This document shows positions 19,515 through 32,010 of a stretch of DNA of 64,000 nt, piece after piece. Positions within the stretch are counted from its first letter, which is position 1. Every line of letters starts with the position of its first letter. Under the pieces are notes generated by a model that was given only the letters and a program-made list of their open reading frames with translations, did not search any database and was not told the origin of the DNA. The translations under genes and the position numbers were made by a program. The DNA is from Candidatus Zixiibacteriota bacterium (GTDB lineage: Bacteria; Zixibacteria; MSB-5A5; GN15; JAAZOE01). Where the stretch lies: NCBI GenBank assembly GCA_043819555.1, contig JBDREQ010000020.1, positions 1-64,000 of the forward strand. The letters run 5' to 3'.

Positions 19515-20381
19515 CTATGAGTTTAATATTATTGCAATTTTGTTGGCTGCTTTGATTATTCTCTTTAATTCTATTTCATTTCCAGATTCTATGAGGCGCT
19601 TGATTTTCTTAAGTTCGGATGAAAACTGGCCAATCGTCTTTATAACATTTTCCCGATTTGACATAAACATATCAAGTGAAAGTTCTGGTGATGATTGGGC
19701 AACGCGGGTTGCGCTTTTAAAACTTCCCCCCAGCATTTTCGTCAGGCTTCTGGAATTGGAATCCTGCTGTCCTATTAAACTGGTTAACGCAATAGACATA
19801 AGATAAGGCAGATGGCTTGTAAGAGAAATATTCTTATCATGCGTCTCCGGATCTATGACAAATGGTTTTGCTCCGAGTTTTTTTGTCAATAATGTAATGG
19901 TGTCAATCCATTCCTTTGAAGTATTATTTTTTATTGTCATAGCAAAAAAGGAATCTCTGAATTGGTTGGGGCGTGCCGCTTCAATGCCCTGTCCTTCCGT
20001 ACCCGCGATTGGATGACAACTAATGTAGTTTACTGACAAAGAATAGGAATTAACGGTTTTGAGAATTTCTGATTTTGTTCCGGCCATATCGATTACGCAG
20101 GCATTTGTATTTACGACCGGCAATACAGTGAGTAATATTTTAATCGTTTGTCTGATAGGGGTAGCGAGAATGACCAAATCGGCTTTGGGAACGCTGGGGA
20201 TCAATTGGGGGGAAATGTGAGTAATAGCGCCGAATTTTCTGGCCATTCTCGCGATGCTGGAATTTATATCATAGCCGCTTACCTCATTGACGATTTTTCT
20301 TTTAATCAAATCCATCCCCAGGGAGCCGCCAATTTGCCCAAGACCAACAATCAAGATTTTCATACGTTTCAACTGTATCAT
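19515..20381 (-). CDS. tyrA: Prephenate/arogenate dehydrogenase
   Basis: VGLGQIGGS, HPIAGTE, HD..ISLTSHLP, SATRVA. Confidence 0.9.
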   Translation of the reverse strand: MIQLKRMKILIVGLGQIGGSLGMDLIKRKIVNEVSGYDINSSIARMARKFGAITHISPQLIPSVPKADLVILATPIRQTIKILLTVLPVVNTNACVIDMAGTKSEILKTVNSYSLSVNYISCHPIAGTEGQGIEAARPNQFRDSFFAMTIKNNTSKEWIDTITLLTKKLGAKPFVIDPETHDKNISLTSHLPYLMSIALTSLIGQQDSNSRSLTKMLGGSFKSATRVAQSSPELSLDMFMSNRENVIKTIGQFSSELKKIKRLIESGNEIELKRIIKAANKIAIILNS

Positions 20382-21394
20382 AAATCTCTACCTACGGCTT
20401 GTGCCATTGGTTTTAATTCGTTCATTAATGCTTCAAATTCCTCAGGATGGAGACTCTGTGGACCATCGGATAAGGCCTCTTCAGGATGAGGATGAACTTC
20501 CACCATTAATCCATCTGCGCCAGCCGCAATTCCGCATTTGGAAATGGGTGAGATCAATGATCGTTTCCCTGTGGCATGGCTGGGATCAATAATGATGGGA
20601 AGGTGAGTCAGTTCTTTGACGATCGGGACGGCGGAAATATCCAGAGTGTTGCGCGTGTATTTTTCAAAAGTACGGATACCTCGTTCGCATAGGATAACGT
20701 GAGGATTTCCATTGGAAAGAATATATTCAGCCGACATTAGCCATTCTTCAATAGTTGACATTAATCCTCGTTTGAGAAGTACCGGTCGAGCTGCTTTTCC
20801 AACTGCCTCAAGCAGGGCGAAATTTTGCATATTGCGAGCGCCAATTTGGAGTATGTCGGTGTATTCCCCGACCAGATTGACATATTGTGGCGAGATAACT
20901 TCAGTCACCATTGCCAGGCCAAATGCGTCGGCGGCTTCACGCATTATTTTTAAGCCTTCTTCGCCGAGCCCCTGGAAACTATAAGGAGAAGTCCTCGGTT
21001 TAAACGCGCCGCCGCGCAGTATTTTCGCACCTGCCTTGGCAACAATTTCAGCGGCTTCCATTATCTGATCTCGATTTTCGACAGCGCAGGGTCCGGCCAT
21101 CATAACCAACTCATGACCGCCAATTTTTATGCCGTTCATTGAGATAACAGTTGGTTCTTTTTTGAATTCGCGTGTTGCCAATTTAAATGGTTTCATTATG
21201 GGAACGACGCTCTCGACTCCGGGGAGGGCCAGTAGTATCTCTGGATTGATTTTTTGGCCGTTGCCGACCATGCCAATGATGGTTTTTTTCTTTCCGGAAG
21301 ACAAGTGAGGTTTAAATCCTAATTCCTGAATTTTCTTCAAAACCGTTCCAGTATGCTTAACCGTGGCTTCTGCTTTCATTACTACTATCATCAT
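20378..21394 (-). CDS. aroF: DAHP synthase type I-beta with N-terminal regulatory domain
   Basis: MAGPCAVE, RGGAFKPRTSPYSFQG, QIGARNMQN, CERGIRTFE, DPSHATG. Confidence 0.95.
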   Translation of the reverse strand: MMIVVMKAEATVKHTGTVLKKIQELGFKPHLSSGKKKTIIGMVGNGQKINPEILLALPGVESVVPIMKPFKLATREFKKEPTVISMNGIKIGGHELVMMAGPCAVENRDQIMEAAEIVAKAGAKILRGGAFKPRTSPYSFQGLGEEGLKIMREAADAFGLAMVTEVISPQYVNLVGEYTDILQIGARNMQNFALLEAVGKAARPVLLKRGLMSTIEEWLMSAEYILSNGNPHVILCERGIRTFEKYTRNTLDISAVPIVKELTHLPIIIDPSHATGKRSLISPISKCGIAAGADGLMVEVHPHPEEALSDGPQSLHPEEFEALMNELKPMAQAVGRDL

Positions 21395-21768
21395 TCACTC
21401 TCTCCTTCATTCAGATCAGGTCTAAGGTGTTTGGTTTTGCCCAAATATTGATGTTTTATTTGGTTCTGTGATTTATCGGTGTTAACGTGCATTAAAACTC
21501 TTATTAAACTTTGCATCCCTTTATCCACATGCATTTCGCGAGCGCATAATAAAGGGACCATGCGCATGTTCATGTTGCGAACGGCATAAGCCGGGAATTC
21601 CGCGTTTAGGTCATCAGTCACGGTAAAAAAGATGCTGGCGATATCGTCTGATTCAACCTGATTGGATTCAATTAGTTTTTGCAGCAGAGTAGTCGTTGCT
21701 TCGAGAATATCTTTTTCCGTGTTGCTCACGACGCTTATAGCTCCGCGGATTCCTCTAACTTTTGACAT
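21391..21768 (-). CDS. aroH: Chorismate mutase, AroH class
   Basis: VRGIRGA, FTVTDDLNAEFPA, IRVLMH, YLG..HLRPDL. Confidence 0.93.
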   Translation of the reverse strand: MSKVRGIRGAISVVSNTEKDILEATTTLLQKLIESNQVESDDIASIFFTVTDDLNAEFPAYAVRNMNMRMVPLLCAREMHVDKGMQSLIRVLMHVNTDKSQNQIKHQYLGKTKHLRPDLNEGESE

Positions 21769-22561
21769 TGTCCATACCTTTTCTTAATAGCCTGATAAAC
21801 TTCCCGGTATTATAGACAGCTTGTGCTGAATTGACCGATTTATTGATTACATCTATAATGGCGCTTCCAACAATGACGCCATCCGCTGCTTTGGAAACCG
21901 CTGCAGCCTGATTCATGTTGGATATTCCAAATCCGGCGCAGACCGGGATTGTGCTTTTCCTTTTTATATTCTTTATCCATTGCAGAAGTCCTGTCGGCAA
22001 TTTACTTCGAGCTCCGGTTACGCCTGATATAGTAACGAGATAGACAAATCCCCGACTTCTCCCAAGAATCAATTTGGTGCGCTTGGCGCTTGATGTCGGG
22101 GCCAAAAGGTAGATCAAGTCAATCTTGTTTTGCCGGCACTTAGATTCAAGCTCTCCCGCTTCTTCAGGAATAATATCGGGAACGATTAGTCCTTGTATTT
22201 CGATAGAAGCTGCGCGAGATATAAATTTGTCAACGCCATAACAGTAAACCGGATTGAAATAACTCATCATAATTAACGGCAGGCTAAAGTTGCCGTTCAA
22301 CAGAGAGAGACAATGGAAAATGGAATCAATATTTGTTCCCTGTTCGAGGACTTGTTGCGATGAATATTGAATTGTTTTGCCATCAGCCATCGGATCAGAA
22401 AATGGTATGCCGATTTCGACCATGTCGGCGCCAGACAATTGGAATTCATATAACAACTTAAGAAACGTTCTCTCGTCCGGATATCCGGCAGTGATAAATG
22501 GCAACAGCGCCGTTCGTCCATATTGGCGGCAATTAGCAAAAGTTTCCGTTATGGATTTCAT
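21755..22561 (-). CDS. trpA: Tryptophan synthase alpha chain
   Basis: [38 protein letters not shown]. Start reassigned to ATG 22561. Confidence 0.95.
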
Positions 22562-23804
22562 TAATTTTTCTTTCCAATGCGAGAAGCTTTGAAATGGTTT
22601 TTCTTGTTGACACCGAACTATGAAGCAGGTTTTTGACGTCCTGATTGGCAAGGTCTTTATCGCCCCGGCCGGAGAGGTTTATAATCAGGATATCATTCCT
22701 GCACAAACTGGGAGCGAGCCTTTTGGCATATGCCAAAGCAAAAGATGATTCCAGGGCTGGGATAATACCTTCAGTAATCGATAGTTCTTTAAATGCTTCC
22801 AGCGCTTTTGAGTCTGGAACAGCCTTATAAGATACCCTTCCGGAATCTTTCAACTGGCTGTGCTCAGGACCGACGCCGGGATAATCCAATCCCGCGGCGA
22901 TTGAATGAGTCGGCATAACCTGGCCATCTTTGTCCTGTAACAGATAACTAAAACCACCATGGAGAATTCCCGGTTTGCCTTTATTTAATGTTGCCGCATG
23001 AAGATGAGTTGATAGTCCGTTCCCGGCTGATTCAATACCAAACAAGCTGACTTCTCTGTCGTGCACAAATTCATGAAACATCCCAATAGCATTACTTCCG
23101 CCTCCGACGCAGGCGACGATTGCATTGGGCAGGCGGCCCGCGATATTCTTTATTTGCTTTTTTGTCTCTCGTCCGATAACCGATTGAAAATCACGCACCA
23201 TCAATGGATATGGATGAGGACCGACCGTTGAGCCAATTATATAATATGTCGATGAGACATTGGTGACCCAGTCGCGGATAGCTTCGTTGGTGGCATCTTT
23301 CAATGTTTTGCTCCCGGAATCTACCGGCATAACTTTTGCCCCAAGAAGTATTATTCGGTCGACGTTGGGAGATTGGCGTTCCATGTCCTGGCGGCCCATG
23401 TATATGGTGCAGTCCATTCCAAACAGGCAACAAACGGTGGCAACCGCGACACCATGCTGTCCCGCGCCGGTTTCCGCGATGATTCTTTTTTTCCCCATCC
23501 TTTTTGCCAGAAGACCCTGACCAAGGCAGTTATTTATTTTATGCGCCCCGGTATGCGTCAGATCTTCTCGCTTGAGGTAAATCTTTGCGCCTTTCCATTT
23601 GTGGGTGATCCTTTCGGCGAAATACAACGGTGTTGGCCGGCCAGCGTAATTGTGAAGTAAATCATCAAGCTCGTTCTTAAAATCAGAATTGCATCTGGCG
23701 AGATGATATTGTTCTTCCAAGTGTAGCAGCGCCGCCATCAGCGTCTCGGGCACATATCGTCCCCCAAAACGGCCGAAATATCCTAATTTGTTTGGTTGTC
23801 CCAT
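22533..23804 (-). CDS. trpB: Tryptophan synthase beta chain
   Basis: [50 protein letters not shown]. Confidence 0.97.
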
Positions 23805-24406
23805 GATTGCACCTCACTTATGAATTTCATAATTTTCTCGTGATTCTTTTTTCCCGGTTTATCTTCAACTCCACCGCAAACATCCACGGCATATGGTTGG
23901 GCAATTTCCAATGCCCGGCTTACGTTTTCCGGATTTAATCCTCCGGATAAAACGACGCGACCGTAACGCGAAGCCATTTTGGCGATACTCCAGTCAAATT
24001 GTTTTCCCGTGCCGCCCATTTTTCCCGAATGGTAAGTATCGAGATGAAAATATGAGAGATTGCTGTCCTGAATTAAATCAAGGTCGCTTTCATCGCGAAT
24101 TCTGAATGTCTTGATGAAGGGGGCTGGCAAATTTTTAAGAACATCGATATTCATCTCTCCATGAATTTGCGCAGCATCAAGTCGGCAATTAATAATTGTA
24201 TCTGTAATGATGCCAATCGATTCATCAATAAAAACCCCAATTTTGTTAACGAAAGGAGGAAGCGCTTGAATAATATTTTTGGCCTCTTCATGACTTATTA
24301 TTCGAGGGCTATCGGCAAAGATAAATCCCAAAGCATCCGCGCCCGCCAAAACCGCGAACAATGCATCGTCATAATTTGTGATCCCGCATATTTTTATTCT
24401 TGTCAT
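23783..24406 (-). CDS. trpF: Phosphoribosylanthranilate isomerase
   Basis: [30 protein letters not shown]. Confidence 0.95.
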
Positions 24407-25182
24407 TCCGGCTCTCCCAGAAGTTCATGGATTTTTAGGAATGGATCTTTACTGGTAATTATGCTTTCGCCGATCAGGACGGCATCGACGCCATATTCCT
24501 GAACTCTGCGCATATCTTCCCGGGTTTTAATTCCGCTTTCGCTGATGCAAACGGCATCGCATGGGATTGCAGGATGAATTTTCTCAACGGTTTTCAAATT
24601 AACCTGAAAAGTTTTGAGATTGCGATTGTTAATTCCAATAATCTCAGGCCTTAAACGCCAGGTTCGGGCGAGTTCCTCTCTGGAATGAATTTCAATAATG
24701 GTTTCCAGTCCGATTTTATGCGCCAGAGCATGCAAATCATAAAGTTGATCATCGCTCAGAATAGCCGCAATGAGAAGAATGGCGTCGGCGCCTATTGCGC
24801 GGCTTTCCCAGATTTGGCATTCCTCGATTATAAAATCTTTTCTCAAAATTGGAAGAGATGTATTTTCTCTGGCTTTTTTTAAATCATCGATGGATCCTGA
24901 GAAGAACTGTTCTTCGGTTACAACCGATACCGCCGCCGCTCCAGCATCTTGATAAAGCCTGACAAACCGAGCCACATCCATATTATTGTTCAATATACCG
25001 CGCGACGGCGACCTTCTTTTGATCTCTGCTATCAGAGCGAGTTTTTTGTTTCTTGTTAGATTTATTCGAAAGTTTCTGACTGGATGCATATCCCGAACCG
25101 ATTTGGCCATGTCATCAATAGCTGAATGATTACTCATTTGATCCAGCAAAATTCTCTTATGTTTGATGATTTGATTAAGCAT
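24403..25182 (-). CDS. trpC: Indole-3-glycerol phosphate synthase
   Basis: IAEIKRRSPSRG, PILRKDFI, GINNRNL, SESGI. Confidence 0.95.
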   Translation of the reverse strand: MLNQIIKHKRILLDQMSNHSAIDDMAKSVRDMHPVRNFRINLTRNKKLALIAEIKRRSPSRGILNNNMDVARFVRLYQDAGAAAVSVVTEEQFFSGSIDDLKKARENTSLPILRKDFIIEECQIWESRAIGADAILLIAAILSDDQLYDLHALAHKIGLETIIEIHSREELARTWRLRPEIIGINNRNLKTFQVNLKTVEKIHPAIPCDAVCISESGIKTREDMRRVQEYGVDAVLIGESIITSKDPFLKIHELLGEPE

Positions 25183-26197
25183 TGGGGAAACTCCTGCTGA
25201 AATCTATAAATTCATTTAGTTTCAGTAAGGCTCGGCCGGAATCGATGCATTCTTCGGCCATCCTGATTCCCTCTTTTAAATTGGCTGATTTTCCGGCGAT
25301 GGTCAGGGCTGCCGCCGTGTTAAGCAGGATCGTATCCCGTCGAGGACCTTTTTCGCCTTTCAGGATTTTTAATGTAATAACCGCGTTTTTTCTTGCGTCG
25401 CCTCCGGCCAGTTCTTTTATATTACAAGGGGCAAATCCCAGGGATTGAGGATTCAATTGAAAATGCTGACATGTACCATTATGAGTCATGCTGACTTCAT
25501 TGAGTCCGGCCGTTGTCAATTCATCTATATGGCACCGGCTATAAACGACCATGGCGGACTTTATCCCGATGGCGCGAGCGACATGAACAATTTTATCGGT
25601 ATAGACGCCGTCAAAAACTCCGATTAATTGATGTGTCGCAAAAGCCGGATTGGTTAGAGGGCCCAATAAGTTGAAAACTGTCCTGAATCCGAGTTCCTTT
25701 CTTATGGGTACGACTGCCTTCATTGCCGGGTGCAGCGACGGAGCAAATAAAAACCCGATTCCGATCTCATCTATACTCTGGCCGGATTGTTCGGGGCTTA
25801 AGTCAAGATTGGCTCCCAATTCCTGAAGCAGGTCAGCGCTTCCACATTGGCTGGAAATGGAGCGGTTGCCATGTTTGCCTACGGGAATTCCGCAGGCGGC
25901 GATAACAAAAGATGTCGTCGTGGAAATATTAAACGTCCCTGCCCCATCACCGCCGGTACCGCAATTGTCAAATATCATCTCCTGGTTATGAGGAATGCGC
26001 AGTGCTCTCTCTCGCATCACTTGCGCAGCCCCCAGGATTTCATCAACGGTTTCTCCTTTGCATCTGAGAGCCGTTAGAAAAGCGGCCGTATGAGTTGGAG
26101 AAACCTCGCCTGACATTATCTGATATATTACCTCACGACTTTCTTCAGCCGATAGATCCTGATTATCAATGATTTTTTTAATCGCTTCCTTAATCAT
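25175..26197 (-). CDS. trpD: Anthranilate phosphoribosyltransferase
   Basis: CGTGGDG, TFNIST, KHGNRSISS, RTVFNLLGPLTNP. Confidence 0.96.
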   Translation of the reverse strand: MIKEAIKKIIDNQDLSAEESREVIYQIMSGEVSPTHTAAFLTALRCKGETVDEILGAAQVMRERALRIPHNQEMIFDNCGTGGDGAGTFNISTTTSFVIAACGIPVGKHGNRSISSQCGSADLLQELGANLDLSPEQSGQSIDEIGIGFLFAPSLHPAMKAVVPIRKELGFRTVFNLLGPLTNPAFATHQLIGVFDGVYTDKIVHVARAIGIKSAMVVYSRCHIDELTTAGLNEVSMTHNGTCQHFQLNPQSLGFAPCNIKELAGGDARKNAVITLKILKGEKGPRRDTILLNTAAALTIAGKSANLKEGIRMAEECIDSGRALLKLNEFIDFSRSFPNA

Positions 26198-26199
26198 AA

Positions 26200-26766
26200 T
26201 TACCTCGCGCTGAGAAAATTCGATAACAGATTTTTGCCATAAGGAGTCAGAATTGATTCCGGATGAAACTGTACCCCCACGACCGGTTTATCTGAAAGGC
26301 GAAGAGCCATAATCTCGCCATCGTCGGTGTGCGCGGTGATATGCAGACAATCAGGAAGCGACTCCTCCCGGACTATCAATGAATGATACCGGGTTGCCTC
26401 AAAGGGGGAAGGGACACCCAGAAATAAGCCATCACCGGTATGATAAACACTGGATATTTTACCATGCATCAGTATTTCGGCGTTATCAATATTCCCGCCA
26501 AATGCTTCGGCAAGACATTGATGCCCCAGGCAGACTCCAAGAATTGGCATTTTATCTGAGAAATATTTAATCATATCTACAGAGATGCCGGCGTCCCGGG
26601 GTCGGCCCGGCCCCGGGGAAATCACTAAATGCGTCGGATTGAGATTGATTGCCTGTTCAATAGTAATTTCATTATTGCGGGCAACGTGGCATTCCCCGCC
26701 TAATTCCCCGAAATATTGCACCAGGTTGTAGGTGAATGAATCGTAATTATCGATAATCAAAATCAT
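26200..26766 (-). CDS. trpG: Anthranilate synthase component II (glutamine amidotransferase)
   Basis: IDNYDSFTYNL, SPGPG, GVCLGHQ, RYHSL, QFHPES. Confidence 0.93.
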   Translation of the reverse strand: MILIIDNYDSFTYNLVQYFGELGGECHVARNNEITIEQAINLNPTHLVISPGPGRPRDAGISVDMIKYFSDKMPILGVCLGHQCLAEAFGGNIDNAEILMHGKISSVYHTGDGLFLGVPSPFEATRYHSLIVREESLPDCLHITAHTDDGEIMALRLSDKPVVGVQFHPESILTPYGKNLLSNFLSAR

Positions 26767-28196
26767 CAGAGTCCACCTTCTGCGTTCTCAATCGCCTTTT
26801 GGAGGGCCGCGATTTTGTTTTTGGTTTCCAGATACTCCATCTCCGGAATTGAATCGGCAACAATTCCGGCTCCAGCCTGTAGGTAGTATTTTTTAACCTT
26901 CATTAGAATTGTCCTGATATTGATGCACCAATCCATATCGCCCGACAAGCTGAAATATCCAACCGCGCCGGCATATGGACCCCGCCGGGTTGTTTCAATA
27001 TTCTCGATTAATTCCATCGATTTGATCTTGGGAGCTCCGGTCACGGTTCCGGCGGGGAAGGCGGCCTTAAAGAGATCGAATTGATCCATATCCTTTCGCA
27101 ATTTCCCGGTTATATTGGAGGTCATGTGCATAACATGCGAATATCGTTCGATCGTCATGAATTCATTGACATTGACCGAACCGACGCGGCAGCATCGTCC
27201 CAAATCATTTCTCCCCAGATCAACCAGCATGACATGCTCAGCTCGTTCTTTGGCATCATTGAGTAATTCCTCAGCCATTTTATTATCCTCCTCGGCAGTA
27301 TGTCCTCGAGGACGGGTACCGGCGATAGGACGCACCGTCGCTATGCCATTTTCCAGCCTGACCAGCGCCTCCGGAGAAGAACCGATTAGTTTGACATCAT
27401 CAAAATCCAAAAAGTACATATAGGGCGAGGGATTGAGCATTCGAAGGGCTCGATAAATCATAAACGGATCGGCATCAGTCTCGCCTTCCAATCTTTGAGA
27501 AATGACCTGCTGGTAAACATCCCCGGCTATGATATGTCTCTGTACTTCGCTAACTGCCCGGCAAAAATCATCTTGCGCAAAATTGGAAGCAGGTTTTTTA
27601 CCCATAGCAATATTTCCATTTCCGGATGGATTAGCCAGAGGAGAATGCAGTGCATCTATAACGCTGTCCAGTTTTTCCGCGGCGGCGGATTCATTATTGC
27701 CTGCTGCCAGACTCAGAACTTTTATAGTTCTCTGAATATGATCAAAAACCAGAAGAGTATCTATCAAATACAGCATCGCCGGAGGTATATGAAGGGTATC
27801 GCGGGATAAATTCGGAATGTTTTCAAAAAAGCGAATGAAATCATAGCTGATAAATCCAACCGCTCCTCCGAGCAGAGGGGGGCGGTTGTCAATTTCTTCC
27901 ACGGAAGAACGATTGAGAATAGAACGAAGGCAACTTAGGGGAGCGTCAGGTTCTATATATGATAAGGATTCACTATTTACCCCGTTTTGAAGAGACAAGT
28001 GATTGTCATAAACAGTAATTTTTGATTCCGGTTTCATTCCGATAAAGGAGTAACGGCCCAGTCTTGTTGCGCCCTCAACGCTCTCCAAAAGAATTTTCGC
28101 TCCAATGGTTTGAAGTTTTAGAAACGCCGAGACCGGTGTTTCCAAATCAGCCGGCATTTCTCGCGATAAAATCTTCAATTTCGTATGTTCCACCAT
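26766..28196 (-). CDS. trpE: Anthranilate synthase component I
   Basis: LLESVEG, NPSPYM, SSPE, PIAGTRPRG, EHVMLVDLGRND, GTVTGAPK. Start reassigned to ATG 28196, downstream of AAGGA and attenuator terminator 2. Confidence 0.95.
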   Translation of the reverse strand: MVEHTKLKILSREMPADLETPVSAFLKLQTIGAKILLESVEGATRLGRYSFIGMKPESKITVYDNHLSLQNGVNSESLSYIEPDAPLSCLRSILNRSSVEEIDNRPPLLGGAVGFISYDFIRFFENIPNLSRDTLHIPPAMLYLIDTLLVFDHIQRTIKVLSLAAGNNESAAAEKLDSVIDALHSPLANPSGNGNIAMGKKPASNFAQDDFCRAVSEVQRHIIAGDVYQQVISQRLEGETDADPFMIYRALRMLNPSPYMYFLDFDDVKLIGSSPEALVRLENGIATVRPIAGTRPRGHTAEEDNKMAEELLNDAKERAEHVMLVDLGRNDLGRCCRVGSVNVNEFMTIERYSHVMHMTSNITGKLRKDMDQFDLFKAAFPAGTVTGAPKIKSMELIENIETTRRGPYAGAVGYFSLSGDMDWCINIRTILMKVKKYYLQAGAGIVADSIPEMEYLETKNKIAALQKAIENAEGGL

Positions 28197-28215
28197 TTTA
28201 TATAAGTCCTTGCAC

Positions 28216-28250
28216 AAAAAAAGCCCGCTATCATCGTTTGATAGCGGGCT
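28216..28250 (-). terminator. Attenuator terminator 2 (proximal to trpE)
   Basis: Minus strand AGCCCGCTATCA-AACGA-TGATAGCGGGCT, a 12-bp perfect stem followed by a T-run. Confidence 0.92.
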
Positions 28251-28274
28251 GGAATGCGTTTTTAAAATTAGCTA

Positions 28275-28400
28275 TTAGCTTCCGCTATCAGGCAAAGTGG
28301 CATACCACCACCAGTTAAGACTATAGGAATAGTTAAAGCTGAAGTTGTCTAAGTTGCTTAGTTCGAAGATCCCATAATTTGTGTTAATCAGATTTTTCAT
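28275..28400 (-). CDS. trpL: Leader peptide 2, MKNLINTNYGIFELSNLDNFSFNYSYSLNWWWYATLPDSGS (41 aa)
   Basis: Translated by hand; three consecutive TGG codons at 28305-28313; the 3' end carries TGATAGCGG, complementary to the 5' arm of terminator 2. Confidence 0.85.
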   Translation of the reverse strand: MKNLINTNYGIFELSNLDNFSFNYSYSLNWWWYATLPDSGS

Positions 28401-28410
28401 TTTTCTTTCC

Positions 28411-28445
28411 AAAAAAGAAAAACCCACTATCATTATGATAGTGGG
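28411..28445 (-). terminator. Attenuator terminator 1 (distal)
   Basis: Minus strand CCCACTATCA-TAA-TGATAGTGGG followed by TTTTTCTTTTTT. Confidence 0.9.
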
Positions 28446-28492
28446 CTCGCCTTGCTTCTTTTGGGGGGGAATCTAAAATAACAACGAATCCA

Positions 28493-28585
28493 CTATCTTC
28501 CGGTGGTATAATACCACCACCAATAGCGACCGATGTAGTAATCAACTAAAGCTGAACATTTTACGGCCTGATTCATTGTCCTCAT
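28493..28585 (-). CDS. trpL: Leader peptide 1, MRTMNQAVKCSALVDYYIGRYWWWYYTTGR (30 aa)
   Basis: Translated by hand; AAGGAG RBS at 28589-28594; YWWWYY cluster; the stop codon lies within GATAGTGG, complementary to the 5' arm of terminator 1. Confidence 0.88.
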   Translation of the reverse strand: MRTMNQAVKCSALVDYYIGRYWWWYYTTGR

Positions 28586-28600
28586 AAACTCCTTGTACTC

Positions 28601-28628
28601 AGTATATCAAAGATCAAGAATTTGTCAA
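28601..28628 (-). promoter_or_regulatory. Sigma70-type promoter of the trp/aro operon
   Basis: TTGACA-N16-TATACT with TGn extended -10, directly upstream of the leader 1 RBS. Confidence 0.8.
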
Positions 28629-28734
28629 GGGAAATTTTGTAACTTATTGAAATGCAACAATTAATTTTTACGGATAATTATAGTCTCGTTTAGGATAGTA
28701 CAATCTTTAGATACCGCGTAGCAGGCGGGCAATT

Positions 28735-29577
28735 TTATTTTTCCGCTTCCCCTTCTTCACATGGAAGCACTTCTTCGTAAATTCTTGCTCCGATTGTACG
28801 GCAAATTACCGGATGTTGTATTGATGCCAATTCGCCAAACTTTACTGTTATTTCCAGAGCAATTGTTTCTTGCTCAAAAAGGCTATTGACTAACCACGTG
28901 AGATACATTTCAACATAATCTTCACGGACAGTACTATCATTTAATGCCTCTATGGCAATGTCAACAGAAGCAATCCAAGTTGCCTTTAATTCCGGACTTT
29001 CATTGTTTTTAAAATCTCCCAGTATTCGCGCGGCTGCAAAACGAATAGCCCAAAATCTGTGGTTCAGGGCTGGTAGTAAAAACCTGACCAATCTCTCATC
29101 GCCTTTTTGAGCCAATACACTGGCCGCCTCCAATGCAGCCTGGGCAGTATCTGCGATGAGAGATTCCCAATTAATATCAATTGCTTCCCACTTTCGAAGC
29201 CAGTTTATCCCATCCTCATGATTAAATTGCGATAATAGTTTGGCGGTCTCAAGCTGAACCTTGATTGAAGATGATTCCAAAAAAGGCGGAATCATTTTCA
29301 AAAATGAGGAATCATTATTCTCTTGCAGCCATATTAGAGTATAGGCCTGCGCCCATTCATTTCCGCTGTTTAATGCTCTCGTTAGACTTTCTGTTGTAGG
29401 CTCATATCCAAAACTCAGCAATATATCTTCAGTTGTCGGCAATATTCCTTCATCAGCATACGCGGGAACTGAAAAACATATCATACTCCAGACAAACGCA
29501 GATATCCAAATAAGCGATTTGAAATCTTTCGCGGAAGTCAGAATATTCATATTAACTAATCCTAACAACCGGGCCAC
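28735..29577 (-). CDS. Exported HEAT-repeat-like protein
   Basis: Hydrophobic N-terminus ending PAYA-DE; helical repeats KVQLETAKLL, ALEAASVLA and WAIRFAAARILG. Start may be 29550. Confidence 0.6.
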   Translation of the reverse strand: MARLLGLVNMNILTSAKDFKSLIWISAFVWSMICFSVPAYADEGILPTTEDILLSFGYEPTTESLTRALNSGNEWAQAYTLIWLQENNDSSFLKMIPPFLESSSIKVQLETAKLLSQFNHEDGINWLRKWEAIDINWESLIADTAQAALEAASVLAQKGDERLVRFLLPALNHRFWAIRFAAARILGDFKNNESPELKATWIASVDIAIEALNDSTVREDYVEMYLTWLVNSLFEQETIALEITVKFGELASIQHPVICRTIGARIYEEVLPCEEGEAEK

Positions 29578-31696
29578 TTTGTTTTAAGTTCGGCAATCAA
29601 AGCATCATGCACTTCTTTCTGCTTAGTATAACATTTTGAAGTATTTGGTTGAGTTTCATCGTTGCTCGGTTTAGTATGCGAAGGTCGGTTTTTCTTAGCT
29701 TCTGTAATGGCGTCTTTAAGGAAAGCATCGGCAGCAGCCTTCATTTTGGCCACTGCTTCTTCGGGAGTATCAACTGCCGGTATAACGCATGCCGTTTGGA
29801 GAGCTTCAATTTTTGGTTCAGCCAGTTCCCACTGCGCATCTAAAACAGTTTTCCATTCTTTTTGGTGCTGGCCTTCGTGCGCTTGTGTCGCGGCAAGCGA
29901 CGTATATGTTGATTTGGGGGCACGACCCGGAGGGGGAGCGCCTTTGAATTCCAAATCCTTTACGATCTTTTTGCAATCCGCTTCACTCGTTACATCGTCC
30001 TTACTTTTAATGTCCGTTCGGCCTGTTTACAGACAGAAATCGAATACTTCGCCCTACATTCATCCACCCGCATTTCCCAGTTATCTCCATCCAGGCAGCA
30101 GGCCTTATATTTGGCGCTTGGCATGTATGCTTCCCAGAGTCCGAAATCGCCACCACAATTCGGAGTTTTGCTGGGAGTTTCCTCATATGTTACCGCAACA
30201 TCCGGATTTGGATCACATGCCGGGGCATTGCAGCATACGGCTGAATCAATCAAACAGGGCGCGTCGCCACCCTTAAAAACGAAATTGATAACGTACACGG
30301 CATCACCGACATTGACAGATCCATCATTATTGGCGTCCCCAGCATACATCGGCTCCGGAGGAGGGCCGCCTTTAAACACATGATTGATAACATAGACGGC
30401 ATCACCGACATTTGTTGAGCCATCTCTATTGGCATCTCCGCAAACAATCGCCTCTGTAAGATTTATTGAGATTCCGCAAATTTCACCTTCTCCAAGAATG
30501 TCCCGCACCTCAATCATAATTTCATGCACCCCGGTGTCGGAAGGCGTTGACTGCCATTCATAAACGCCGGTTGCGGGATCCAGGATTCCTGGTCCATATA
30601 ATGTATAAGTAAGTTCATCGCACAATTCGGGCCCAAAAGCATTGAATATGTACTGGATGTACGAACCTGCTTCAGCCTCAATATCTTCGTAACAGGCATT
30701 ATCAAACACCGGAGCATAGCTATATATAATCACTTCGGTTGTGAACACATCCGAACAACCGGTGGGATCACAGACCTGATATACAACACTGTGAATCCCG
30801 ATATCCTCTGGCCCCGGTTCCCACTCCCATTCACCGGTGGCAGTATTCATTGTACCCGGTCCTTCAATCAGCTCAAATGTGATTTCATCTCCCTCAGCAT
30901 CTTCGCCAAAGAAATCGTAATACATATAACTACAGATATAGCGATTAAGTGTTTCTGGATGATTGGTAACATAAGGGAGAGTATTCGGATCGGGGCAGCA
31001 AACGTTGGCGAATATATGGAAATTAATATCTATACCCCAATCATCTGCAATAAAACCCCAGATGCTATTCCAATATTCCATTGAACGCCACTGCCCGCAT
31101 GATCCATCGTCTGACATTATTGAAATCGTGTCATTTATCTGATCAATGACCGTATATCCAACATAGAAATCGCCGGTTACGGTAATCGGTTCGGTAGGAA
31201 AAACAGTTGTAAGATAAGGGAAAAAATAAATTTCGGATCCGGGAACATGAATAATTTCTATTAGTTCTCCCGGAAATCCGTATTCATCGCTATCCCAAAT
31301 TAATACATTAATCCCATTTCCTGAAACATTAACGCTGCCAGCTTCCCAAAATGCGAAACTAACTGACGTCAATGTGCAAGCATCAAGCGGCGTAAATCGC
31401 ATATTAAAGAAATCGTCTCCATAAGCATCAGGAATAGGCCAATAATAATACTCGTTGCAAGTATAATCCAGCCACTCACAATAGGATTTATCGCCGACCG
31501 CTTGTGATTTTTCCGGCAATGAAATATCCGCCCCCGACAATATCTTCTCTTTGTCGATTAATCGAGGGGTTTTTCCCTGAATAGTATTCTCTGTCGCGAC
31601 ATTTTCTGAACTGACATCCAAGGCCAGTAACAGCATAAATATGCCGCAGCTTAGAACCGTTATTGTGAAAATAAAAGCACTGACTTTCCTTTGCAT
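29562..31696 (-). pseudogene. Frameshifted secreted protein: N-terminal domain, Ig-like repeats, dockerin, C-terminal HExxH domain
   Basis: The 31696..29990 ORF (GGAGG RBS, signal peptide, two Ig-like repeats, dockerin CGDANRDGSTNVGDAV) joins the 29562-ending frame (TGRTDIKSKDD..AHEGQH) if one base is inserted between about 30028 and 29990. This could be a real frameshift or an assembly indel. Confidence 0.6.
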
Positions 31697-32010
31697 ATAA
31701 CCTCCCCGCAACATATGCCAATCCATCGCGATAAAACACCCCGCATTCGCGAATGAATTAAGATTTATATAACTTGTTCACTGGGTAATTCTCCCGCCCC
31801 GGGATGAATTACATTTGCCAATGCAAAATCAGATATAGGATTTAATTTTTATGAAATTTGAATCGCAAATTCCACCTTCCATCTTCGATAAACATATATA
31901 TTTTGCGCCCAAAAGTCAATTGCTTTAACCCTCACAAATAGTCAATTGACAATTTGACCAAATAGTTGTTTCTTGGATTTGCTCGCTGAATTATAAACTA
32001 AGGTGTAATT

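Follow-up and report, generated by a model that had tools for sequence, protein, structure and literature searches.

Can the transcription of a tryptophan operon be guarded by two ribosome-read attenuators placed one behind the other? To our knowledge leader-peptide attenuation, a founding example of gene regulation, has always been described as a single gate. The question is raised by the start of a trp operon in a Candidatus Zixiibacteriota bacterium, on a stretch of 64,000 nucleotides (contig JBDREQ010000020.1, positions 1 to 64,000, assembly GCA_043819555.1) that we call the window and in whose numbering all coordinates are given. The genome it belongs to, G000, is a draft in 79 contigs, 97% complete and 3.35 Mb in size. 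On the minus strand one sigma-70-type promoter is followed by a short leader open reading frame (ORF) with three consecutive Trp codons (WWW), terminator 1, a second leader ORF with WWW, terminator 2 and trpE (Table 1). The original prediction, made from the letters of the window, had described two complete leader-peptide attenuators in tandem behind a single promoter, and all the elements that it listed are present at their coordinates. Its anatomy is borne out further by pairing statistics, by ribosome-masked folds, by retention of both units in a sister genome and by the same layout in two other genera. Each unit taken alone is textbook; the new part is the serial arrangement for one signal, and the comparison of sequences confirms a genuine, conserved serial pair of putative Trp leader-peptide attenuators.

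The promoter scores 11 out of 12 with the TG of an extended -10, ranks top of five promoter-like sites in 27500-29500, and shares 25 of its 28 bases with the sister genome G001, of the same genus, with no gaps. The promoter scan found no second promoter between terminator 1 and leader 2, nor any other on the minus strand from the promoter to trpE. The C-terminal end of leader 2 is ...NFSFNYSYSLNWWWYATLPDSGS, also given as ...NWWWYATLPDSGS. Within the window TGGTGGTGG has two sites, both in the leaders, where 0.17 would be expected; it occurs 27 times in the 3.35-Mb genome. When terminator-adjacent short ORFs were scanned over the whole genome, the two leaders were the only ones to contain WW, and a chance origin of the two sites is not plausible. 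The 46 rows of such ORFs in G000 gave no convincing His, Leu, Phe or Thr leader. A third in-frame WWW-Tyr site, C31:22277, was rejected as a leader, lying as it does inside a 446-codon sensor-kinase-like ORF.

The pairings available to each unit are mutually exclusive. An antiterminator segment (segment 2) with the motif GAUAGYGG is present in each, and, as had been claimed, it pairs with the 5' arm of that unit's own terminator (segment 3). In unit 1 these are GAUAGUGGAUUCG (28497-28485) and CGAGCCCACUAUC (28449-28437), of whose 13 positions 12 pair, one of them as G-U, and the other is an A.C mismatch; in unit 2 they are UGAUAGCGG (28290-28282) and CCGCUAUCA (28247-28239), paired at 9 of 9. 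Unit 1 also has a 1:2 helix, in which UCGCUAUU, directly 5' of the Trp codons, forms 8 of 8 pairs with GAUAGUGG, and this pairing is part of the minimum-energy fold. The UAG of leader 1 lies within GAUAGUGG, and the UAA of leader 2 (28277-28275) stands 4 nt past UGAUAGCGG. The stem-loop of terminator 1 (28448-28420) was given 13 pairs and a loop of 3 by the terminator scan. The two designs are not alike: unit 1 has a full 1:2 anti-antiterminator, and unit 2 of G000 is largely without one.

The original prediction had proposed folding the alternative structures, and this gave the antiterminator with a ribosome on the Trp codons and the terminators in full-length RNA. Each unit was cut where the 3' arm of the terminator begins, and the bases covered by a ribosome were masked, the mask being the A-site codon plus 10 nt, which is consistent with the coverage of 12-15 nt from the P site mentioned in section 11 of PMC3641672. 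Whichever of the three Trp codons the ribosome occupies, segment 2 of unit 1 pairs with the terminator 5' arm at -19.0 kcal/mol, and the antiterminator of unit 2 forms at -16.3 to -17.1 kcal/mol. With the ribosome at the stop codon there is nearly no structure (-1.5 kcal/mol in unit 1, -0.6 in unit 2) and segment 3 is free. In the full 396-nt leader both terminators belong to the minimum-energy structure (z = -5.1).

Covariation among related units supports the same two helices. Alignment A2 brings together 16 units from 11 genomes; the helix structures were derived from the same sequences on which they were tested, which favours them. In the terminator helix 94.3% of cells are paired and 5 of 12 pairs have changed on both sides, and in 500 shuffles neither the percentage paired nor the compensatory count nor the covariation score was ever as high as observed; sliding one partner by 1-3 columns leaves 31-53% paired. 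For the antiterminator helix the figures are 89.8% of cells paired and 3 of 11 pairs changed on both sides, with 28-57% paired after the same slide. Compensatory cases include GGUAG with CUACC in G003, and GAUGG with CCAUC in the Tyr-type units of G003 and G012 (taken up below). In all 19 units for which the pairing was computed (of 31), 6-8 of 8 bases of segment 2 pair with segment 3.

In G001 the whole 441-nt query was matched at 81% identity, and both leader frames are open, leader 2 being longer there by one codon. Identity is unevenly spread. Codons 1-17 of leader 1 are 67% identical and codons 18-31 are 90% identical, with no gaps; for leader 2 the values are 55% over codons 1-22 and 83% over codons 23-42, again with no gaps. 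Terminator 1 keeps 24 of 27 bases with two gaps, terminator 2 keeps 27 of 29 without any, and gaps are present in the non-coding spacers. The regulatory cores and terminators of both units are thus 83-93% identical between the two genomes, so that both units combine drifting N-terminal codons with a fixed regulatory core.

A search upstream of trpE in relatives, which the original prediction had suggested, found the two-unit layout in 5 of 28 genomes. A covariance model built from A2, R1, was used to search 151 genomes of the order. In G000, G001, G011, G030 and G052 it matched twice at full length directly upstream of trpE, with both matches on one strand and about 70-90 nt between them. This type of TrpE, counted at no less than 48% identity over most of its length and with two partial 48% matches left out, is found in 28 of the 151 genomes: 5 are tandem, 21 are single (G076 being counted from its contig C3) and 2 are not assignable, namely G066, whose contig ends 81 nt past its unit, and G144, which has a WW leader and no model match. 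G011, G030 and G052 belong to other genera and to one other family, which restricts the tandem in this sample to three genera from two families. Those genomes fetched with the other TrpE type (38-45% identity) have no such leader upstream of trpE. In a class sample of 151 genomes 35 had a match at E <= 1e-7, with two matches in G000 only and one match each in 25 genomes from other orders; the sample labelled as the phylum covered the same families f1-f19 as the class sample, with no new lineages. Between genera, terminator sequences keep 87-89% identity where that of TrpE is down to about 61-65%.

One of the relatives, G007 (L018, about 1040-1500), has one unit close to unit 1 of the window (...SRYWWWYYTT...), after which about 300 nt with a 73-codon ORF, no Trp run and no terminator precede trpE. 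This stretch may be what remains of a second unit after decay, or an insert of another kind.

Taken together, sequence, folds and comparison make it likely that both units are working Trp-sensing, ribosome-mediated transcription attenuators that are read serially on one transcript. That transcript would be about 400 nt long and start from the promoter (28628-28601). With ample charged tRNA-Trp, the ribosome on leader 1 would reach its UAG and cover GAUAGUGG, terminator 1 would fold and most polymerases would stop near 28411. Polymerases that escape would transcribe leader 2, on which a second ribosome would run to the UAA and cover UGAUAGCGG, so that terminator 2 would halt most of those remaining. 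When charged tRNA-Trp is scarce, the ribosome would stall on WWW in each leader, leaving segment 2 free while segment 4, the 3' arm of the terminator, is unmade; the 2:3 antiterminator would then form and polymerases would read through both terminators into trpE. We infer that both leaders are translated and that real termination takes place at both sites. It is reasonable to suppose that overall read-through would approximate the product of the two gates, in which case basal expression would be lower, and the response steeper, than with one unit.

Several observations weigh against this reading. The 21 single-unit relatives among the 28 indicate that a second unit is not generally required. 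Leader 2 of G000 has a ribosome-binding site, GGAAAG, that is weak, as had been noted before, and its start codon lies about 10 nt past the U-tract of terminator 1; in all five tandem genomes, read from their sequences, leader 2 starts about 2-15 nt past terminator 1. In unit 2 of G000 the 1:2 helix could form 5 of 8 pairs, which go unused in the fold. Equilibrium folds retain the terminators under every mask, so the argument rests on co-transcriptional order, and that order was modelled crudely, by the cutting and masking described above; that terminators win at equilibrium would be expected of a kinetic switch. With no ribosome, the truncated RNA of both units also forms the antiterminator, and the untranslated default is therefore not clearly off, especially for unit 2, which, being largely without a 1:2 helix, would default to read-through if untranslated. 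The history of the pair, to which we return below, is a further point of this kind.

A fuller picture can be drawn, although we regard it as doubtful. Here the pair would be an old, selectively kept two-stage checkpoint of unlike stages, with unit 1 as a four-segment stage that is off if untranslated, by virtue of its 1:2 pairing, and unit 2 as a three-segment stage in which termination would depend on a ribosome actively completing the leader. Combined with Tyr codons around both Trp runs, such a checkpoint might offer the fused trp-aro-tyr operon a squared dynamic range, protection from spurious read-through after one missed coupling event, and sensing of Tyr as well as Trp, with no protein regulator.

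It seems rather improbable that only one unit regulates and that the other is a relic of duplication, decaying or acting as a constitutive partial terminator. The prevalence of single units among the relatives (21 of 28), the weak ribosome-binding site of leader 2 and the poor 1:2 pairing of unit 2 would all fit such a relic, as would G007, where the roughly 300 nt behind a unit-1-type element contain neither a second WW leader nor a terminator and could be the decayed remains of a second unit. Against it stands the state of the units themselves: in 5 of 5 tandem genomes both retain the Trp run, the open frame, the complementarity of segments 2 and 3, the stem and the U-tract despite about 40% divergence, and between G000 and G001 the cores of both are 83-93% identical as against 55-67% for the N-terminal codons.

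Units 1 and 2 within one genome have 58-62% of alignment columns in common, which is also the level seen between units of different genera. A maximum-likelihood tree built on 31 units places G000 unit 1 with unit 1 of G007 (support 96/90) and not with unit 2 of G000, and leaves 12 of the 28 inner branches open, deep ones included. Approximately unbiased (AU) tests did not reject the grouping of unit 1 and unit 2 of one genus as a clade (p 0.48, 0.475 and 0.518), nor that of all unit 1 (p 0.50) or all unit 2 (p 0.62) as a clade. The tree and the AU tests thus do not tell an ancient pair from several origins. Under genus-specific duplications or one old duplication alike, both units would have been kept intact for long.

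Units of the same family are not confined to Trp. R1 also matches upstream of separate operons of aroH and 3-deoxy-D-arabino-heptulosonate 7-phosphate (DAHP) synthase in G003, G018, G009, G012, G024, G085 and G049, and an element of the same kind turned up upstream of aroH in G136 and G144 when those regions were scanned for motifs. In place of Trp runs these leaders have Tyr (and Phe) runs, such as ...SRYYRYYYYYNRQNDGG and ...ARYYYFYYYCRSGSG, and they are followed by a GRUAGYGG segment and a GCCCGC-type terminator. Such Tyr-type loci are L047:809-1099 (-), L048, L050, L051, L052, L054, L056, L062 and L063. By their sequences, the Tyr-type and Trp-type units appear to be one attenuator family with switched amino-acid specificity. 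In the window the genes for aroH, DAHP synthase and prephenate dehydrogenase are fused behind trpA, so the Trp attenuators would also govern common-pathway and Tyr-branch genes.

A link between the tandem and this fusion of aroH, DAHP synthase and tyrA to the operon was considered and rejected. Eight fused operons are single-unit (G048, G034, G064, G090, G072, G088, G031 and G096, in each of which aroH follows trpE on the same strand at a distance of about 6 kb), and the tandem genome G011 has no aroH match at E <= 1e-10.

These relatives also bear on whether the two units sense partly different signals, the Tyr codons (YWWWYY in leader 1, NYSYSLNWWWY in leader 2) adding a Tyr response to make a combined aromatic-amino-acid gate. 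We find this unlikely. The homologous Tyr-run leaders (e.g. ...RYYRYYYYY...) ahead of the relatives' separate aroH-DAHP synthase operons lend it some colour, and at least one Tyr adjoins the Trp run in all leaders read from operons with aroH after trpA (G000, G001, G030, G052, G034, G048, G064, G076, G090, G072, G019, G088, G031, G096, G066, G062 and G007), compared with 4 of 11 leaders from genomes in which aroH lies in another place or was not detected (G003, G004, G086, G144, G133, G011 twice, G021, G043, G129 and G079), a comparison confounded by relatedness. Both leaders hold WWW, however, so both would sense Trp; the preceding Tyr codon belongs to segment 1 (CGC UAU) and the following one to a local hairpin, so that RNA structure alone may explain them; and tandem versus single does not track the aro fusion, as just described. 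Tyr next to the Trp runs may reflect dual Trp/Tyr sensing, or equally segment 1 together with shared ancestry.

It is very unlikely that unit 1 is mainly a separate small gene whose terminated transcript of about 185 nt, or 30-residue peptide, acts in trans. Unit 1 does have its own strong promoter, Shine-Dalgarno sequence and terminator, and in Sinorhizobium the trpL RNA and peptide are reported to act in trans (PMC6614838, PMC7298713); yet the peptide is poorly conserved in its N-terminal half, no target came to light, none having been looked for, and such a role would be compatible with attenuation in cis. An assembly or binning artefact, by which a collapsed or duplicated repeat in a 79-contig draft made the second unit, has a negligible chance, since the two units of G000 share 59% of alignment columns, which at only about 60% likeness does not fit an assembly duplicate (the original prediction had judged one unlikely on the same ground of divergence), and the layout recurs in four other independently assembled genomes.

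We also considered whether other regulators of the operon could be found. TrpR (PF01371) and TRAP (PF02081) were both absent from searches of G000 in which their controls, for TRAP that of B. subtilis, were found, and an Rfam scan of 27900-29000 at E up to 10 gave no match to a T-box. TrpR occurs in 10 of the 151 genomes of the order, none of them an attenuator carrier. The suggestion that the tandem stands in place of a repressor is not specifically supported: TrpR was found in neither the tandem nor the single-unit genomes and so does not discriminate between them.

Among known systems the closest for each unit is trpL of E. coli and other enterobacteria, the Yanofsky model, with its short ORF holding consecutive Trp codons, its exclusive 1:2, 2:3 and 3:4 pairings, its GC-rich terminator and U-tract directly ahead of trpE, and a stop codon so positioned that the terminating ribosome covers segment 2; the mechanism as we apply it is that given in section 11 of PMC3641672. 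The window differs in having two serial units instead of one, three Trp codons instead of two, no TrpR partner found in G000, and a unit 2 without a convincing 1:2 helix. The core of terminator 2, AGCCCGC...GCGGGCUUUUUUU, can be aligned with the Rfam consensus of the enterobacterial Trp_leader (RF00513), and unit 2 (28215-28319, minus strand) matches that family at 24.4 bits and E 0.023, below its gathering score of 41; unit 1 has no match to it at E up to 10. Bacteroid-trp (RF01692), a predicted Trp leader of a neighbouring lineage, the Bacteroidetes (listed in a table of PMC2864571), is not among the nine Rfam matches at E up to 10 in 27900-29000. By the Rfam thresholds the units are not members of either family.

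The original prediction knew of no characterised tandem pair of leader-peptide attenuators, and this holds in part. The nearest case, the mgtCBR leader of Salmonella with the ORFs mgtM and mgtP, has been published as 'tandem attenuators' and is called 'singular' by the authors in the part of PMC3641672 that treats it. As described there, it resembles the window in that one mRNA leader holds two short translated ORFs, each steering its own stem-loops and transcription into the coding region. It differs in sensing ATP and proline-charged tRNA, additively, where the window has WWW in both leaders, and its stem-loops, by the same account, are unlike intrinsic terminators, whereas each unit of the window ends in a canonical one. 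What stands is a narrower statement: in the open-access full texts searched, 'tandem attenuators' were met only as this leader and as the engineered pT181 attenuators described below, and no natural tandem pair of amino-acid leader-peptide attenuators was found, a same-signal one included.

In logic the arrangement also resembles tandem T-boxes and riboswitches, where a biosynthetic operon is preceded by two complete units in a row, each with sensor and terminator and both for one signal, and where a sharper response is the presumed result. Tandem T-boxes occur on trp operons of Firmicutes. The difference lies in the sensor, as T-boxes and riboswitches bind tRNA or a metabolite directly and the window would use a translating ribosome, which means that each gate would need its own initiation event and transcription-translation coupling. 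A tandem arrangement has been linked to 'more-digital' regulation in the pertinent section of PMC2864571. Synthetic tandem pT181 attenuators, two identical ones in series, likewise change response threshold and sensitivity, and are unlike the window in being engineered, controlled by antisense RNA and without a leader peptide, as far as the portion of bioRxiv 10.1101/003335 on them goes. Further near analogues are the tandem terminators in the rimP leader (PMC2965389) and double T-boxes (PMC9413887), each as summarised in part of its source.

Two complete gates for one amino acid in a natural operon would carry the series-sensor logic of T-boxes and riboswitches over to ribosome-based sensing. 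The related genomes offer a ready comparison of one-gate and two-gate forms, in basal level, dynamic range and steepness. They also document, in a little-studied and uncultured lineage, a family of homologous Trp-type and Tyr-type attenuators, with no trp repressor found in the carriers.

For trpE we take ATG 28196 as the start, with a Shine-Dalgarno sequence AAGGA at 28211-28207. The TTG at 28217 given by the ORF lister was rejected, as it sits within the U-run of terminator 2. The features of the locus are collected in Table 1.

Table 1. Elements of the tandem leader and the trp operon in the window
Feature	Position	Strand	Basis or remark
Promoter: TTGACA (28628-28623), 16-nt spacer ending TGn (extended -10), TATACT (28606-28601)	28601..28628	-	Promoter scan
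Shine-Dalgarno sequence AAGGAG of leader 1	28589..28594	-	Sequence read directly; kept in G001
Leader ORF 1, 30 codons + UAG, encoding MRTMNQAVKCSALVDYYIGRYWWWYYTTGR	28493..28585	-	Trp codons 28522-28514; stop inside segment 2
Unit 1 segment 1, UCGCUAUU then UGGUGGUGG	28514..28529	-	Partner of segment 2 in predicted anti-antiterminator
Unit 1 segment 2, GAUAGUGGAUUCG, 5' strand of antiterminator 1	28485..28497	-	Masked folds and alignment
Terminator 1: segment 3 (28449-28437), loop, segment 4, U-tract UUCUUUUUU to 28411	28411..28449	-	Terminator scan
Weak ribosome-binding site GGAAAG of leader 2	28405..28410	-	A/U-rich stretch directly 3' of terminator 1 U-tract
Leader ORF 2, 41 codons + UAA	28275..28400	-	Trp codons 28313-28305
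Unit 2 segment 2, UGAUAGCGG, 5' strand of antiterminator 2	28282..28290	-	Masked folds
Terminator 2: hairpin 28250-28222, 12-bp stem, 5-nt loop, seven U to 28216	28216..28250	-	Terminator scan
trpE (anthranilate synthase component I)	26766..28196	-	TIGR00564, 547 bits against cut-off 517.7
trpG, trpD, trpC, trpF, trpB, trpA, aroH (chorismate mutase), DAHP synthase, prephenate dehydrogenase (tyrA)	19515..26766	-	NCBIfam; ORFs overlap or abut

The stretch upstream (28735-31726), also on the minus strand, has three reading frames: one for a protein with HEAT repeats (28735-29577), one of 130 residues that matched no family, and one for a 578-residue protein carrying Big_9 and dockerin domains. 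From the HEAT-repeat gene to the trp promoter the sequence showed no terminator. Elsewhere in the order, G004:C468 (L049) carries on its reverse strand a WWW leader (MSSIAHNSIFTVSNQWWWCTCHWRW...) and a terminator ahead of a gene for a pyridoxal phosphate (PLP)-dependent enzyme (PF00291). The locus lies away from the trpE of G004, and the gene is possibly a second TrpB-like gene.

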